From the NCBI GenBank assembly GCA_000432915.1, contig HF995233.1, positions 100,637-164,636 on the forward strand: a DNA stretch of 64,000 nucleotides, written 5' to 3'. Position numbers and translations under genes: made by a program. The notes under the pieces are model-generated. The model was given only the letters and a program-made list of their open reading frames with translations, was not told the DNA's origin and did no database searches. This document shows positions 2,146-51,926 of this stretch, one piece after another. Source of the stretch: Firmicutes bacterium CAG:194. Lineage in GTDB: Bacteria; Bacillota; Clostridia; Lachnospirales; Lachnospiraceae. Each line of letters begins with the position of its first letter. Position 1 is the first letter of the stretch.

Positions 2146-2430
2146 ATGTTAAACTTAAACCTTCAATTCTTCGCTCATAAAAAGGGAGTAGGTTCTACTA
2201 AGAACGGTCGTGACTCTGAGTCTAAGAGATTAGGTGCTAAGAGAGCAGACGGACAGTTTGTAAAGGCTGGAAATATTTTATACAGACAGCGTGGTACTAA
2301 GATCCATCCGGGTGTTAATGTCGGACTTGGTGGAGATGATACATTATACGCATTAGTAGACGGTGTTGTTAGATTCGAAAGAAAAGGAAGAGATAAAAAA
2401 CAGGCTTCCGTTTATCCGGTAGAAGACTAA
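2146..2430 (+). CDS. rpmA: 50S ribosomal protein L27, with the N-terminal propeptide that Prp cleaves
   Basis: [24 protein letters not shown]. Confidence 0.95.
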
Positions 2431-2436
2431 TTACGA

Positions 2437-2478
2437 AATTGCGTGGAGCCTCAAACTAACGTTTGAGGCTCTTTGTTG
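2437..2478 (+). terminator. Intrinsic terminator after rpmA
   Basis: Hairpin GAGCCTCAAAC-taa-GTTTGAGGCTC followed by TTTGTTGTT. Confidence 0.7.
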
Positions 2479-2497
2479 TTGAATGTGAAAATTTTGA

Positions 2498-3817
<1,320 letters not shown>

Positions 3818-5387: not shown

Positions 5388-5745
5388 TATATCAAAGAAA
5401 ATGGCGCTTGCAGCGATCGACGCACTGGAAGATAAAAAAGCAGAAGATATCCGTGTGATCGATATCAGCGAAGTTTCCCCGTTAGCCGATTATTTTATCA
5501 TCGCAAACGGAACAAACCGCAATCAGGTACAGGCACTTGCTGACAATGTGGAAGAACTTTTAGGCAGACTCGGATATGAAAGAAGACCAATTGAGGGCTA
5601 TGACAGTGCAAACTGGATTCTGCTTGACTTTAAAGATATTATTATCCATGTTTTTGATAAGGAAAGCAGAAGCTTTTATGATCTGGAACGCATCTGGAGA
5701 GATGGAAAAGAAGTTACGGAAGAAGACTTAAAGAGCGCAGAATAA
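5377..5745 (+). CDS. rsfS: Ribosome silencing factor RsfS
   Basis: ADYFIIANGTNRNQVQALADNV. AAAGGAG RBS upstream, with the start at 5377. Confidence 0.9.
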   Translation: MTNSISKKMALAAIDALEDKKAEDIRVIDISEVSPLADYFIIANGTNRNQVQALADNVEELLGRLGYERRPIEGYDSANWILLDFKDIIIHVFDKESRSFYDLERIWRDGKEVTEEDLKSAE

Positions 5746-5751
5746 TATGAA

Positions 5752-5792
5752 ATCCCGGCAGTATATGAACTGTCGGGATTTTTATGCACGAT
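5752..5792. terminator. Bidirectional hairpin terminator between rsfS and lexA
   Basis: AAATCCCGGCAG-tatatgaa-CTGTCGGGATTTTT. Confidence 0.6.
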
Positions 5793-5825
5793 AATATATT
5801 TGATGTTGGGATCATATATTCTTTA

Positions 5826-6443
5826 TTAGCGATATAACCGGAATACACCGAATACTTTACCAAGAATATCACAATCATCTACAATGATCGGATCCATGGT
5901 ATCATTTTCCGGCTGCAGACGGACATGTCCCTGTTCTTTATAAAATGTCTTAACCGTTGCGGAATCATCCACAAGTGCAACGACCATATCTCCGTTTCTG
6001 GCTACATTGGTACGCTCTACAAAGATCTGATCCCCACTGAAGATACCTGCATTGATCATACTGTCGCCCTTTACCTTTAAAATAAAAGTCTCTGCATTTG
6101 GCACCATATCGACCGGAACCGGAAAATATCCTTCTATATTCTCTGCAGCAAGTATAGGCTGACCGGCAGCAACAGTGCCAATAATCGGAATGCTTGTCAT
6201 TTCATTTCTGACAAGCTGAAAGCTGTCATCGCAGATCTCAATCGCACGCGGCTTAGTCGGATCACGGCGGATATAACCGTTCTTCTCGAGCGTTTCCAGA
6301 TGCGCATGCACGGAAGAAGTGGATTTCAGATGCACTGCCTCGCAGATTTCACGAACAGCCGGCGGATAACCTTTCTCTAAAATCTGTTCCTTTATATATT
6401 CCAAAATTTCTGACTGTTTCTTACTGATCTTTCCGTTAGCCAT
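5826..6443 (-). CDS. lexA: LexA repressor (SOS regulator)
   Basis: N-terminal wHTH ([26 protein letters not shown]), the VAAGQP cleavage site and the S24 peptidase domain. Confidence 0.95.
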
Positions 6444-6554
6444 ATTCTATATCCTCCCTGTTCTCATTCACGGACATCAAAGTTGGGGCTTTTGACCCCG
6501 GCATCATTTAAATTAAGTATAACAGATATCTGTTGCAAAAGCAAACGTATATTC

Positions 6555-6568
6555 CGAAAATTTGTTCG
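6555..6568. promoter_or_regulatory. Putative LexA (Cheo-type) operator, CGAAAATTTGTTCG (one mismatch)
   Basis: GAAc-N4-GTTC palindrome about 110 nt upstream of the lexA ATG. Confidence 0.4.
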
Positions 6569-6576
6569 TTTTTTGC

Positions 6577-6603
6577 TTGACACCAGAATGCCTGTTCGGT
6601 ATA
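6577..6603 (+). promoter_or_regulatory. Putative sigma-A promoter, TTGACA-17-TATAAT, for the yneA-like gene
   Basis: TTGACA at 6577-6582 and TATAAT at 6598-6603. Confidence 0.5.
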
Positions 6604-6614
6604 ATGCAGGTATA

Positions 6615-6628
6615 AGAACGAGTGTTCG
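6615..6628. promoter_or_regulatory. LexA (Cheo box) operator, AGAACGAGTGTTCG
   Basis: A perfect GAAC-N4-GTTC immediately downstream of the -10 of the yneA-like promoter. Confidence 0.6.
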
Positions 6629-6662
6629 TATCGTACGTTCGATAAATCGGAGGATAGCAAGT

Positions 6663-7100
6663 ATGGAAACAACAGGAAGAGAACTACAGATCATGCATTT
6701 TATACAGCCGGAGGATTCTATGAAGAGAATACCTGCTCGCATTAAGAATAGAAGAGCAGCACAGCGCCGCAGACAGGTCATGCGGATGAAATGCCTGATC
6801 AGAAACAGCATTTTCACACTTTGTGCAGTCATTCTCCTTGCTGTATCCATTAATGCGATCAGCGCACAGGCTACCACAAAGGAAGAAGCTCTGACACATA
6901 CCTATAAATATTATAAAAGCATAGAGATTTCCAAAGGAGACAGCTTATGGACGATCGCAGCAGTTTATACAGACGGCTCTGCAGCAGCCATACAGGATTG
7001 TGTAAAAGAAATGCGTTCGATCAATTCCTTAAAAAATGACACGATTAAAGCCGGAGACCGGATCATCGTGCCATATTATTCCAATGAATTTATCAAGTAA
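6663..7100 (+). CDS. yneA: SOS-induced cell-division inhibitor YneA-like protein (one TM segment plus a C-terminal LysM). An alternative start at 6720 is possible.
   Basis: Divergent from lexA with Cheo boxes in the shared region. TM segment IFTLCAVILLAVSINAI, then a LysM-like stretch YKSIEISKGDSLWTIAAVY...IKAGDRIIVPYY. Confidence 0.6.
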   Translation: METTGRELQIMHFIQPEDSMKRIPARIKNRRAAQRRRQVMRMKCLIRNSIFTLCAVILLAVSINAISAQATTKEEALTHTYKYYKSIEISKGDSLWTIAAVYTDGSAAAIQDCVKEMRSINSLKNDTIKAGDRIIVPYYSNEFIK

Positions 7101-26724: not shown

Positions 26725-27483
26725 TTGTTATTATTGGAATGCAACGATCTATCTTTTTCCTATCACACTCATACGGGAGAAATTTCTGTCATAAAGTCTG
26801 TCAGCTTCCGGATCCATAAAGGAGAATTTGTCTCCATTGTAGGTCCAAGCGGTTGTGGAAAATCCACTTTACTTGGTCTGTTAACCGGCATTTTAAGTCC
26901 GGAGGAAGGTAGTATCAAAATTCACTATAAGCAAAAGGGAACTCAGTCCTTTTACGGGTATATGCTGCAGCAGGATCACCTGCTTGAATGGTATGATATC
27001 TGGGATAATGTCTGTCTTGGGCCAAAGATCAATCATTGTCTGGACAATGCATGCAAGGAATATCTTCACACCCTGCTTACACGTTATCAGCTTGATTCCT
27101 TTGCTCATAAAAAACCATCCCAGTTATCCGGCGGTATGCGCCAACGTGCAGCGCTGATCCGCACGATTGCCATGAAACCCGAGCTCTTATATCTGGATGA
27201 ACCATTCAGTGCACTGGATTACCAGAGCCGTCTGAATGCAGCAGACGATATCGGAAAAATCATACAAAAGGAAGGAAAAACAGCTGTTCTTGTTACCCAT
27301 GACATCGGAGAAGCCATCAGTCTGTCCAGCCGTGTCCTCGTTCTGAGCAAGCGGCCGGCAACGATCGTAAAGGAATTTGTTCTGCCATTCCAAAATACAG
27401 GCCTCTCCTCTCTGGAAATACGGAACCTGCCCGAATTTTCCACTTATTTCAATCTTATATGGAAGGAGCTTAATACAACATGA
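26725..27483 (+). CDS. ABC transporter ATP-binding protein (NitT/TauT / SsuB-like)
   Basis: GPSGCGKST Walker A, LSGGMRQRAALIRT signature and LYLDEPFSALD. Confidence 0.85.
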   Translation: MLLLECNDLSFSYHTHTGEISVIKSVSFRIHKGEFVSIVGPSGCGKSTLLGLLTGILSPEEGSIKIHYKQKGTQSFYGYMLQQDHLLEWYDIWDNVCLGPKINHCLDNACKEYLHTLLTRYQLDSFAHKKPSQLSGGMRQRAALIRTIAMKPELLYLDEPFSALDYQSRLNAADDIGKIIQKEGKTAVLVTHDIGEAISLSSRVLVLSKRPATIVKEFVLPFQNTGLSSLEIRNLPEFSTYFNLIWKELNTT

Positions 27484-28268
27484 GCCAAAACCAGCTTCTC
27501 TTTTTACAGGTCGAAAAAAAGAGGAAGCTCCTGATCCGCATTTCGCGTATTCTTGTGTTGCTTGGTTTTCTTGCAATATGGGAAATCACCGCAAGATGTG
27601 GTCTTATCGATGTCTTTTTTTACAGTTGCCCGACAAGGGTCGCAAGGTGCTTTCTGGAAATGACAAAAAATAATCAGTTATTTATGCATATTGGTGTGAG
27701 CTTATATGAAACAATCCTGAGCTTTTTCATTATCATGATCGGATCTGTACTGGTCGCCTCACTGCTCTGGCGTTTTCAGACAATGTCCAGTGTTGTGGAA
27801 CCGGTTTTTGTACTTCTCAATTCCCTGCCAAAGTCAGCACTTGCACCACTCATCATCGTCTGGCTCGGAACAGGGATCCGCACAATCGTGATCGCGGGAA
27901 TTTCCGTTGCAATTTTCGGCTGTATCATCAATTTGTATACCTGCTTTAAAAATACCGATTCTGAAAAACAAAAGTTGATCCGTATTCTGGGTGGAAAAAA
28001 AAGACATATCTTCTTTATGGTCGTTCTGCCAGCCGCCCGCGAAACAATTCTGAGCAACATGAAGGTCAATATCGGGCTTGCGCTTGTAGGTGTTATGATT
28101 GGGGAATTTTTAGCTGCCAGACAGGGACTGGGATATCTGATCATTTATGCCAGCCAGGTTTTTAAGCTCGACTGGCTGATCCTGTGTATTCTGATTCTCT
28201 GTTTCATAGCCGTCTGTCTGTACAGCCTGATCCAGATGATTGAACGCCGGCTCAGTGTGAAGATATAA
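27480..28268 (+). CDS. ABC transporter permease (SsuC/TauC-like, BPD_transp_1)
   Basis: Six TM segments. Translationally coupled to the upstream ATPase by an ATGA overlap. Confidence 0.8.
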   Translation: MSQNQLLFLQVEKKRKLLIRISRILVLLGFLAIWEITARCGLIDVFFYSCPTRVARCFLEMTKNNQLFMHIGVSLYETILSFFIIMIGSVLVASLLWRFQTMSSVVEPVFVLLNSLPKSALAPLIIVWLGTGIRTIVIAGISVAIFGCIINLYTCFKNTDSEKQKLIRILGGKKRHIFFMVVLPAARETILSNMKVNIGLALVGVMIGEFLAARQGLGYLIIYASQVFKLDWLILCILILCFIAVCLYSLIQMIERRLSVKI

Positions 28269-28287: not shown

Positions 28288-28376
28288 GCAGAGAAGAGCT
28301 ATACTCTGCAAATCCCACTCTGATCAGAGGTTGTCATATGCACCACATAAATGCGTGCATTTTCCTCGTCGCCATA
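28288..28376 (+). ncRNA. Conserved structured ~90-nt 3'-UTR element, copy 1 (candidate sRNA or cis element); function unknown
   Basis: About 80% identical, with no gaps, to 48656-48743. Hairpin CAGAG-N10-CTCTG, the CTCTGATCAGAGG motif, and hairpin AAATGCAC-N11-GTGCATTT. It starts 20 nt after the permease stop. Confidence 0.4.
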
Positions 28377-28420
28377 CAAAAAAACCTCAGACATGCGAAC
28401 ATGACTGAGGCTACATAAAA

Positions 28421-28493
28421 AGCTGAAAATGGGACTCGAACCCACGACCCCTTCATTACGAGTGAAGTGCTCTACCAACTGAGCTATTTCAGC
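28421..28493 (-). tRNA. tRNA-Thr (anticodon CGT)
   Basis: Cloverleaf GCTGAAATAGCTCAGTTGGTAGAGCACTTCACTCGTAATGAAGGGGTCGTGGGTTCGAGTCCCATTTTCAGCT. A terminator hairpin CCTCAG...CTGAGG plus T7 follows on the minus strand (28388-28409). Confidence 0.9.
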
Positions 28494-33788: not shown

Positions 33789-33815
33789 TCATTCCATAAA
33801 GTATCATATACTCTA

Positions 33816-33985
33816 AATGGGTATTTCCTATAACCGCAATCACACTTGACTCCCCTGCGATTTGTCAAAGCACATATTGCACGTGCTCCGGCCGCTAGAA
33901 AGCGTAGCGGTCTCTCCGCACGGCAAGTGCTTTGCAAATCTCGGTCGTCTACGCTATCGATTGCTCATTATAGGAAATACCCATT
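33816..33985 (-). repeat. Palindromic hairpin-forming repeat element, copy A (MITE/REP-like, inverted orientation)
   Basis: Conserved ends (AGCAATCGATAGCGTAGACGACCGAGATTT ... AAATCGCAGGGGAGTCAAGTGTGATTGC on the minus strand). Outer 18-bp inverted repeat AATGGGTATTTCCTATAA. Confidence 0.6.
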
Positions 33986-34066
33986 TTCTGTATATATTTA
34001 ACTGTGTAAAAAAAGATAAAATAATAATGACTGCAATATTTATTATTAATATTGATAGAACAATAA

Positions 34067-34238
34067 AGCAGGAAGCCCTATATAAAAAGCAATCGATAGT
34101 GTAGCCGACCGAGATTTATCGTTCCCTTTACCGGAGCGAGCGATCACAAAGCTTTTACGTGACGGGAGCCCGGTAAAATGGGAACGAGATAAATCGCAGG
34201 GCAGGCAAACGTGATTGCTTTTATATAAGGCTTCCTGC
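34067..34238 (+). repeat. Palindromic hairpin-forming repeat element, copy B
   Basis: AAGCAATCGATAGTGTAGCCGACCGAGATTT ... AAATCGCAGGGCAGGCAAACGTGATTGCTT. Outer 26-bp inverted repeat GCAGGAAGCCCTATATAAAAGCAATC. Confidence 0.6.
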
Positions 34239-44007: not shown

Positions 44008-44137
44008 ATTCTACCTCCATAACATATCCCGCTTCATAAGTTACAGGAGCGTTTTATGTAATAGAAACGAAGTTTCCCATTACATAAAAAGGGCAAATAA
44101 ATGCATTCATTTATCTGCCCCGGTTCTATTTTCGTTT

Positions 44138-47530: not shown

Positions 47531-48634
47531 ATGGCTGGTTCAATATTTGGAACACATTTCAGAATAGGAACATTCGGCGAATCGCATGGAGAAGGGCTCG
47601 GCGTTGTGATCGACGGTTGTCCCGCAGGACTTTCTCTTTGTGCAGAGGATATACAGCTTTATTTAAACCGTCGTAAACCCGGTCAGTCAAAATTTGCCAC
47701 ACCGCGTAAAGAGGCGGATGCGATTGAAATCCTGTCCGGTGTATTTGAAGGAAAAACAACCGGAACGCCGATCGCACTTCTGGTCAGAAATACATCCCAG
47801 CGGTCTTCCGATTATTCCGAAATCGCCTCTTATTACAGACCGGGGCATGCGGATTTCACTTTTGATGCCAAATACGGCTTCCGCGACTATCGCGGCGGTG
47901 GTCGTTCCTCCGGACGTGAAACGATCGGTCGTGTGGCAGCAGGTGCGATTGCCTGTAAAATATTGCAGGAGCTTGGTATTACGGTCTGCGCCTATACAAA
48001 AGCGATCGGTCCCGTCGAGGCTTCCATGGAACAATTTGACCCGGATGCTATTTTAACGACTCCTACTGCTATGCCTGATCGAAAGGCTTCCGAGGAAGCT
48101 GAGGCTTACCTCTCAGGCTGTATGGAGCAGAAGGATTCCTGTGGTGGTGTGATCGAATGCAGGATAGACGGTGTTCCCGCCGGCATTGGAGAACCTGTCT
48201 TTGACAAGCTGGATGCCTCCCTTGCCAAAGCCGTGATGTCGATCGGTGCTGTCAAGGCATTTGAGATCGGTGATGGCACGAAAGTGGCTCATATGCATGG
48301 CAGCGAAAATAATGACTGCTTCTGCATAAAAGACGGCCGGGTTATCAAGGAAACAAATCACAGCGGCGGTATTTTAGGCGGTATTTCCGATGGCAGCCAG
48401 ATCATGCTCCGCGCCTATGTGAAGCCGACCCCATCCATCTTCCAATCGCAGCACACGGTCAACAAAGCCGGGGAAGAAATTGACATCCAGATCAAAGGGC
48501 GTCACGATCCGGTCATCATGCCAAGAGCCGTTGTTGTGGTAGAAGCCATGACTGCTTTAACCGTTCTGGATCTGATGATGGACAATATGACCGCAAGAGT
48601 TGATTATCTGAAACAGATTTATACTCCAAAATAA
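47531..48634 (+). CDS. aroC: Chorismate synthase
   Basis: [24 protein letters not shown]. Confidence 0.95.
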
Positions 48635-48655
48635 AGTGTGCACATCTTTGCAAAC

Positions 48656-48743
48656 AGAGACGAGATACGCTCTGCGAATCTCGCTCTGATTAGCGGTCGT
48701 CAAATGCACCGCATAAATGCGTGCATTTTCCTCGTCGCCATAA
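48656..48743 (+). ncRNA. Conserved structured ~90-nt 3'-UTR element, copy 2
   Basis: Starts 22 nt after the aroC stop. Same architecture as 28288-28376. Followed by two hairpins (48751-48773 and 48778-48813, the latter followed by TTTT). Confidence 0.4.
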
Positions 48744-48850
48744 CACAAAAACAGCCCTACATGCAGAGGGCTGTTCTCTGCCTCAGCCATCTCCCCGGGA
48801 GCTGGCTGAGGCTTTTAAATAAAATGAAGTATGAAAAAATATGTGGTAGC

Positions 48851-50164
<1,314 letters not shown>

Positions 50165-51671: not shown

Positions 51672-51926
51672 AAGCAGGATTCACCTATAATAAGCAATCG
51701 ATAGTGTAGCCGACCGAGATTTGCAAAGCCCTTGCCGTGCTCCGGCCACCACGCTTTTTGGTATATGTAACGGATTTACACAGTAAATCCGTTATGTAGC
51801 CTCTGTGCATCGGCGAAGCCGATTTCACATGCACAGAGGTTCGAGTGGCTGGAGCACATGCAATAGGTGCTTTTCGCAAATCGCAGGGTAGGCAAACGTG
51901 ATTGCGTTTATAGATGGATCCTGCTT
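51672..51926 (+). repeat. Palindromic hairpin-forming repeat element, copy C (longest, with nested internal hairpins)
   Basis: Same conserved ends as copies A and B (AAGCAATCGATAGTGTAGCCGACCGAGATTT ... CAAATCGCAGGGTAGGCAAACGTGATTGC) with outer inverted repeats. Confidence 0.6.

Follow-up and report, generated by a model that had tools for sequence, protein, structure and literature searches.

The whole 64,000-nucleotide (nt) stretch of contig HF995233.1 from the Lachnospiraceae member Firmicutes bacterium CAG:194 that was analyzed here (the window) carries two copies of a repeat unit of about 91 nt, referred to below as the element. Copy 1 begins 20 nt past the stop codon (28268) of an ABC permease gene (27480-28268; PF00528), and copy 2 begins 20 nt past the stop codon (48634) of aroC, encoding chorismate synthase (47531-48634; PF01264). 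An earlier note on this DNA, made from the letters alone, had given 20 nt for the permease, as found here, and 22 nt for aroC, which is corrected to 20 nt. Both sites are convergent, with a co-oriented gene before the unit and, behind it, a terminator whose gene lies on the opposite strand; at copy 2 this is the enolase gene (48851-50152, minus strand). The features at the two sites are as follows.

28289..28377, minus strand: decayed copy 1 of the unit; the minus strand, its family orientation, has 5'-GTATGGCGACGAGGAAAATGCA...CTCTG straight after the T7 run of the tRNA-Thr terminator
28289..28322, unstranded: H1 of copy 1, the long variable hairpin with outer arms CAGAG/CTCTG, partly broken
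28336..28362, unstranded: H2 of copy 1, ATATGCA...TGCATTT
28378..28410, minus strand: intrinsic terminator of tRNA-Thr, an A7 run plus the hairpin CCTCAGACATG-CGAA-CATGACTGAGG; as read from the tRNA gene, the 11-bp stem is capped by a TTCG loop and followed by T7
28421..28493, minus strand: tRNA-Thr(CGT), owner of the terminator adjoining copy 1 (Rfam tRNA match)
48655..48744, minus strand: intact copy 2 of the unit; its sequence equals the family consensus and is also found in Kineothrix sp. MSJ-39 and in further genomes
48655..48688, unstranded: H1 of copy 2, CAGAG-A-CGAGAT-A-CGC-TCT-GCG-A-ATCTCG-CTCTG
48689..48701, unstranded: near-invariant linker of copy 2, ATTAGCGGTCGTC
48702..48728, unstranded: H2 of copy 2, with an invariant base AAATGCA/TGCATTT and a tip that covaries
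48729..48744, unstranded: invariant tail of copy 2, TCCTCGTCGCCATAAC, the end that always adjoins the terminator T-run
48745..48774, minus strand: enolase terminator, ACAAAAA plus the hairpin ACAGCCCT...AGGGCTGT; on the minus strand the hairpin and then TTTTTGT
48780..48816, plus strand: second hairpin, GCCTCAGCCA...TGGCTGAGGC, then TTTT

A repeat search of the window returned 28289-28384 and 48655-48750 as a 96-nt ungapped direct repeat with 84% identity, and MAFFT also aligned the two without gaps. The gap-free alignment of two ~90-nt stretches in the earlier note is thereby borne out, and these are the only two in the window. A 39-mer common to both copies, ATGCACCNCATAAATGCGTGCATTTTCCTCGTCGCCATA, occurs exactly twice in the window against an expectation of zero (100 shuffles), and a covariance model (R1) run over the 64 kb with filters off retrieved only copy 2 (117.8 bits) and copy 1 (81.7 bits), the next match scoring 14 bits. 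Copy 1 has five substitutions in a linker that is otherwise >95% conserved, and its H1 mid-stem pairs are broken. The 8-bp hairpin AAATGCAC/GTGCATTT, described as perfect in both copies, is so in copy 2, but copy 1 reads ATATGCAC. Beyond the element, the hairpins that had been called terminator-like are indeed terminators, but the A-run that precedes them makes them the terminators of the minus-strand genes (tRNA-Thr and enolase). The A7 run and hairpin at 28378..28410 are host DNA and lie outside the repeat, and the second hairpin at 48780..48816 would likely terminate plus-strand aroC transcripts once these have passed through the element.

The repeat unit consists of the variable long hairpin H1, the near-invariant linker, the hairpin H2 and an invariant tail ending in ATAAC. 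On the strand used by the earlier note, the consensus is (A)CAGAG-A-CGAGAT-A-CGC-TCT-GCG-A-ATCTCG-CTCTG, followed by ATTAGCGGTCGTC, AAATGCA-C-CGCAT-AA-ATGCG-TGCATTT and TCCTCGTCGCCATAAC. H1 varies in sequence and length while the hairpin is kept (GATAAAAC/GTTTTATC, CAAGATGCGC/GCGCATCTTG and the short form CAGAGCGA/TCGCTCTG), and eight of nine mid and apical pairs covary across the family. Family alignments show that the H2 tip covaries as well, for example as ATTGTGC-AA-GCACAT, and that the linker, the H2 base and the tail are nearly invariant. H2 forms a module of A-tract, hairpin and T-tract, about 45 nt of conserved sequence in the unit are unpaired, and a conserved TTGACG resembles a -35 box.

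In an alignment of 67 sequences, 94.7% of cells are paired in the conserved fold, compensatory changes occur in 13 of 27 pairs, and none of 500 shuffles matches these values. The conserved fold is a long hairpin in which the first CAGAG pairs with the last CTCTG. The CAGAG-N10-CTCTG hairpin favored earlier is present but is not the conserved one (77% paired; 28/500 shuffles as good). RNAalifold gives a better consensus fold on the minus (family) strand than on the plus strand (-24.5 versus -13.1 kcal/mol). Counting G-U against A-C wobbles was tried as a means of assigning the strand and proved uninformative; since G-U wobbles are enriched on neither strand (34 versus 29), there is no sign of selection on an RNA of one polarity.

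Further copies were sought in two scans. An 18-mer from the conserved tail, TGCATTTTCCTCGTCGCC, searched against one genome per species, gave at least 101 loci, with the remainder of the element present at 81 of 103 matches (nhmmer was also used). A central 21-mer searched against metagenome contigs gave at least 120 further loci, many of them labeled human gut. Together the scans yielded >150 copies beyond the pair in the window, almost all from Lachnospiraceae and from many genera, including Fusicatenibacter, Coprococcus hominis, Dorea hominis, Jingyaoa, Anaerosacchariphilus, Acetatifactor, Roseburia and others. The few matches labeled as lying outside Lachnospiraceae look like binning errors, judging from flanks that they have in common with Lachnospiraceae loci. 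Several copies occur per genome; among the matches listed, Kineothrix sp. MSJ-39 has 11 loci and a Muricoprocola metagenome-assembled genome about 10. Some units stand head to tail with a period of 91 to 92 nt. No match was found in plasmids or in IMG/VR, and one partial match lies in a fecal phage-like contig.

The element matches no Rfam family, in agreement with the earlier note, which could not place it in any RNA family. Only tRNA passes the Rfam gathering threshold in the whole window, and a search of both copies against Rfam 15 at E<=10 returned sub-threshold chance matches only (MIR535, 17.7 bits; istR, 14 bits). The core sequences were not found in the papers searched, and keyword searches gave no description of such a Lachnospiraceae repeat. 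What the note had described as a conserved, structured and repeated element absent from Rfam is a real and structured repeat family of wide distribution, which apparently has not been described before and has an unusual, sharply delimited address in the genome. The element is most likely a small interspersed bacterial repeat rather than a new regulatory RNA.

This reading rests on where the copies lie. Neighbor orientation was surveyed twice, for 88 copies with a crude open reading frame (ORF) caller and in an independent sample retrieved with a mid-element probe. Tail-side genes lie on the opposite strand in 73/80 cases of the first and 55/60 of the second survey, H1-side genes in 61/80 and 47/65. 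A co-oriented gene precedes the unit at only about a quarter of the sites (19/80 and 18/65). In the commonest layout both neighbors are opposite (50/80 and 35/60), and gene A, terminator, element and gene B follow each other co-directionally; the first survey contained 16 cases of the convergent layout of the window and 2 of the layout that the note had taken as general. The hairpin past the tail differs at every site; at least five A residues stand within the 8 nt or less before its core at 54/60 sites, while at least five T residues follow the core at only 24/60. The constant neighbor of the element is the intrinsic terminator of an opposite-strand gene. These counts contradict the proposal that the element is a small RNA or cis element derived from the 3' untranslated region (UTR) of the gene upstream, and a position 20 nt past a stop codon, which the note had suggested checking in other copies, is a feature of the two convergent window sites and not of the family.

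On the terminator strand the order is gene A, hairpin, T5-7, then GTTATGGCGACGAGG... / GTTATGGCGACGAGGAAAATGCA..., then anything, and the T5-7 run adjoins the GTTATGG end at nearly all sites. Gene A is unrelated between sites (enolase, tRNA-Thr, PPDK, PEP carboxykinase [PEPCK], ribosomal protein L28, Tex, RNase H, CheV), and the terminator owners are often highly expressed genes. The genes that follow the element are diverse, at spacings of ~5 to >1,000 nt. The ribosome-binding site (RBS) and start codon of gene B often lie only 5 to 30 nt from the element (at least 12 loci), so the gene B transcript must start in or cross it. The element is tolerated in both 5' leaders and 3' UTRs. Since both window sites are convergent, its position within the aroC and permease 3' UTRs is a by-product of this address; both mRNAs must run into the element, and a local 3'-UTR effect is possible there. 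The terminator-side strand is the G-rich strand in 129/138 loci, as expected for insertion into the lagging-strand template, a correspondence that is confounded with gene direction in short loci.

Comparison of orthologous sites in related genomes shows insertion polymorphism (L-numbers denote retrieved loci or contigs that carry element sites or are orthologous to them). Copy 2 is unchanged in five contigs with an identical AroC (L102-106), which like the window are filled, whereas two relatives with 94 to 95% identical AroC have no element; one of them (L111) keeps the enolase terminator and the other (L118) has a different terminator. Compared with the empty site, the filled aroC/eno site has ~18 extra nt and a changed T-run. 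Relatives with 96 to 98% AroC identity (L109, L115-L117) carry a ~150-nt filler with its own aroC terminator in the aroC-eno spacer, and the filler strings GCAAACAGA and CATTTTTTCC may be the ends of an internally deleted element, a possible remnant. The enolase terminator occurs without the element in L111, L109 and L115-117. Copy 1 is fixed in the species; a cleaner empty site for it was sought, but the contigs from the species itself are without exception filled, and in more distant relatives the region is rearranged.

One of the relatives (L249; permease 69% identical) has the tRNA-Thr(CGT) segment inverted with respect to the window (2296-2625). An intact element still stands behind the tRNA-Thr terminator there, in family orientation, and a decayed copy remains by the permease stop codon. 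Since the element stays with the inverted tRNA-Thr terminator, it is linked to the terminator rather than to the stop codon. The position of the segment between inverted decayed and intact copies suggests inversion by recombination between copies or repeated targeting of the terminator. As a separate observation at this locus, one strain of the window species (L245, ~2300-3189) has an IS30-like transposase gene (HTH_38 plus rve) beside tRNA-Thr.

Other orthologous sites differ in the element itself. Tandem copy number varies at one site (L100, L035, L036, L088). Between L019 and L072, the flanks are almost identical and H1 differs by compensatory changes, which points to replacement or conversion between copies. 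Between L002 and L099, the element shows 0/90 differences against ~8/75 in the flanks. Copy 2 is 100% identical to Kineothrix copies, while the one protein common to the window and a Kineothrix locus is ~55% identical; this points either to elements that share a recent ancestor or to a very strong constraint. At 44040-44137 of the window, the terminator of a 106-amino-acid gene is empty, whereas that of the orthologue in the closest relative of the window in the genome set (L083, 3146-3240) is followed by a 28-nt remnant that represents the terminator-side end of the element. Decayed and truncated copies are common, and with the central probe either end is lost at similar frequency. A SINE-like 5' truncation was rejected on this ground, the bias in the first scan having come from seeding in the tail.

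Two further observations concern contig structure at the element. In L107 (3589-3650), which belongs to the window species, the element, both hairpins and the last ~27 enolase codons are missing, with the breakpoint exactly at the H1 end (CAAACAG|), as a result of either a real deletion at the repeat or an assembly artifact. In L198, L226, L191 and L208, and in L201 compared with L004, one flank of the element matches one locus and the other flank another; these contigs reflect either chimeric assembly through the 91-nt repeat or genuine recombination, and L004 comes from an isolate genome.

Several more specific identities were tried and rejected. The element has no terminal inverted repeats (TIRs), as its ends, (A)CAGAG... 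and ...TCGCCATAAC, share only the 6-nt GACGAG/CTCGTC, and that in one subfamily only. A target-site duplication (TSD) or an 'AC' duplication was ruled out by comparing the flanks of 58 unique full-length sites, where the tail end is constant (ATAAC), the other flank varies and direct repeats that match on both sides are absent. A small minus-strand ORF of eight codons, MHAFM(W/R)CI, follows GAGGA in both window copies; its frame and stop codon are lost in other subfamilies. Likeness to a Xer/dif-like or attC-like site is confined to the variable H2 tip and is not conserved in alignments. H1 was also compared with domain V or VI of a group II intron and rejected as a remnant, since loop and bulge do not fit and no covariance model matches.

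Among known systems, group IIC (class C) introns come closest in target choice, as they are found, in a single orientation, directly behind the stem-loop and T residues of intrinsic terminators (PMC1702495). This target is common to both, but the element has only 91 nt, lacks ribozyme domains and a reverse transcriptase (RT) ORF, starts with GUUAUGG and not with GUGYG, and has no match to Rfam intron models (Intron_gpII, D1-D4), even at E<=10. Group IIC introns comprise ribozyme domains I to VI, have a 5' GUGYG and often an RT ORF. IS200/IS605 single-strand transposons and their ORF-less derivatives (PATEs) lack TIRs and TSDs; a hairpin lies close to either end, one side adjoins a fixed short target, and their orientation is strand specific and tied to the lagging-strand template. 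The element likewise lacks TIRs and TSDs, has a hairpin near each end, is strictly oriented, and adjoins a fixed short sequence, the T-run, on one side only. The active-strand orientation on the G-rich or leading-sequence strand is also alike, with the confounding noted above. In contrast to PATEs, however, H1 of the element is terminal and not subterminal, and no master copy with TnpA/TnpB and these ends was found in the retrieved loci. A folded terminator hairpin beside the target is not known to be a requirement of the IS200/IS605 family, and the resemblance in mechanism, to IS608/ISDra2, is a presumed one.

Repetitive extragenic palindromes (REPs) are single palindromes of 20 to 40 nt, often arranged as inverted pairs (REPINs), and each family is found in one species or a few close relatives; a cognate RAYT (Y1 HUH) gene is present in the genome and is usually flanked by REPs. 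Like REP, BIME and REPIN sequences, the element is short, structured, extragenic and multicopy, often lies at the 3' ends of transcription units, sometimes forms arrays and is a substrate for recombination. It differs in its 91-nt length, its two unlike hairpins with ~45 nt of conserved unpaired sequence, its head-to-tail arrays and its distribution over many genera with >95% core identity, and no RAYT was seen in the retrieved loci. Classical miniature inverted-repeat elements (Correia, RUP, ERIC, bcr1) are similar in size range, intergenic location, insertion polymorphism and cotranscription with neighbors, but the two ends of the element do not form an inverted repeat, neither TA nor any other target sequence is duplicated, and its position is fixed relative to terminators. 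Variation in tandem copy number is shared with MIRU-type intergenic minisatellites.

We favor, as a moderately probable explanation, that the element is a non-autonomous mobile or recombining DNA repeat specific to Lachnospiraceae, which is mobilized in trans, targets terminators and is recognized by its hairpins, and not a gene-specific RNA. Copies would arrive by orientation-specific insertion beside a hairpin and T-run, and an enzyme acting in trans would probably recognize the element in single-stranded DNA, by its two hairpins and its conserved unpaired core. This would resemble the 'peel-and-paste' elements of IS200/IS605 type and their ORF-less derivatives, and the enzyme may be a single-strand transposase. 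Once placed, copies would persist, decay, duplicate in tandem and recombine; arrays would grow and shrink by reinsertion or slippage, and copies would be homogenized or recombine with each other. On this account, the copy behind the enolase terminator (copy 2) is intact and equal to the consensus, and the one behind the tRNA-Thr terminator (copy 1) is older and decayed. Several points weigh against mobilization in trans. The mobilizing gene was not found: no HUH or group II RT ORFs were detected in the retrieved loci, a motif scan of the 5,136 ORFs in these loci gave no Y1/HUH-motif proteins, and the loci contain no longer element with the same ends. The sole filled/empty pair stems from diverged lineages and, with the ~18 extra nt and the altered T-run, has a junction that is not cleanly defined, and truncated copies lack either end and so carry no signature of a mechanism. 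Orientation relative to replication is inseparable from orientation relative to transcription. Selection against insertions elsewhere could explain part of the association with terminators, and conservation of >95% in a ~60-nt core across genera could mean a host function instead of selfish spread.

The main rival builds on such a function. The element may be a REP/BIME-like terminator accessory that was domesticated by the host and is kept behind strong terminators, where it might stop or trim opposing transcripts (H2 followed by UUUUCC resembles a weak terminator in plus orientation), protect 3' ends or serve as a binding site for a conserved host protein; gene conversion or recombination would be its main means of spread. 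The extreme conservation of linker, H2 base and tail across genera, the unchanged element between the diverged flanks of L002 and L099, the frequent high expression of the terminator owners, the tolerance of the element in 5' leaders and 3' UTRs and the A-tract/hairpin/T-tract module of H2 all agree with this. Yet most terminators are unoccupied (the window has two copies, and its terminator at 44040-44137 lacks even the remnant seen in L083), decay and truncation of copies are frequent, close relatives do without the element and without any replacement, no strand-specific G-U enrichment is seen, and tandem arrays of variable length are hard to explain by such a function. We consider this rival doubtful. 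Retro-mobilization in a SINE-like manner, in which an RNA copy ending in the A-run is reverse transcribed at the terminator T-run by the RT of a group IIC intron or another RT, would account for a target identical to that of group IIC introns (PMC1702495), for the A-run that always follows the plus-strand 3' end, for the ~18 nt that the filled aroC/eno site has in excess at its other end and for the tandem arrays. But truncations found with the unbiased central probe hit both ends without 5' polarity, the A-run preexists at the empty site and is absent between tandem units, no RT ORFs lie near any copy in the retrieved loci, and there is no similarity to ribozymes or introns, which leaves this the least probable of the explanations weighed.

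Two further rivals assign the element to one of the neighboring genes. If it were an RNA leader or mobile promoter for the gene that follows it on the minus strand, the prevalence of the co-directional layout, the close spacing to gene B with transcripts starting in or crossing the element, the better minus-strand consensus fold and the -35-like TTGACG would be readily understood. No sigma-70-like -35/-10 pair is conserved in 118 unique copies, however, and none was called in the window copies, on which ground the mobile promoter was rejected; in addition, the following genes are diverse and variably spaced, a downstream gene on that strand is missing at about a quarter of the sites, both window copies among them, and no Rfam cis-regulatory family matches. 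We rate this explanation as improbable. Slightly more improbable still is a plus-strand 3'-UTR element of the upstream gene, acting either in cis or as a small RNA of ~100 nt that ends at the downstream hairpin. At both window sites no terminator separates the upstream gene from the element, which must therefore be part of the mRNA of that gene; covariation backs the fold; and the C/U-rich tail UUUUCCUCGUCGCC is unpaired in that fold and would complement a GGAGG-type RBS. Against this stand the scarcity of co-oriented upstream genes, the start codons of divergent genes 5 to 30 nt away at many sites, which leave no room for a plus-strand promoter, the good plus-strand T-run after the downstream hairpin at only 24/60 sites, the lack of G-U asymmetry, the absence of covariation in the proposed CAGAG-N10-CTCTG hairpin, and L249, which links the element to the tRNA terminator and not to the permease.

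Beyond the element, the window contains a second, unrelated repeat family at 33806-33995, 34081-34230 and 51684-51917, whose blocks TATAAnAAGCAATCGATAGTGTAGCCGACCGAGATTT and AAATCGCAGGGnAGGCAAACGTGATTGC recur in both direct and inverted orientation; the two intergenic regions that hold them are separated by 17.6 kb. It has no Rfam match, only spurious hits to long-hairpin microRNAs. Furthermore, the GC skew changes sign at ~5700-7100, from +0.05 before 8 kb to -0.12 to -0.17 after, and gene orientation converges there; the window thus appears to include a switch resembling a replication terminus.

More speculatively, a bolder version of trans-mobilization, which we put forward tentatively and regard as rather unlikely in full, is that the element represents a new class of non-autonomous mobile DNA whose target is the 3' side of intrinsic terminators, chosen by the logic of group IIC introns but with 91 nt and without ribozyme, TIRs or TSDs. 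It would be moved in trans by a HUH single-strand transposase, an intron-type RT or something new, would have spread horizontally among Lachnospiraceae genera, and would have rewired the 3' and 5' UTRs of highly expressed genes and seeded rearrangements. If the mobilizing enzyme were identified, this would be a second, independent case of 'safe-harbor' insertion behind terminators and could provide a useful targeting activity. Lachnospiraceae are dominant, poorly tractable gut commensals whose intergenic repeats are essentially uncharted, and the element offers a ready-made landmark for transcript 3' ends in them. It would also cause repeat-induced mis-assembly of metagenomes; several contigs look chimeric across it, although real recombination is possible there as well. 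For the genomes themselves, the element is a likely substrate for inversions and deletions, as at the tRNA-Thr locus, and the UTRs of genes of central metabolism, those for enolase, PPDK and PEPCK among them, come to include it.

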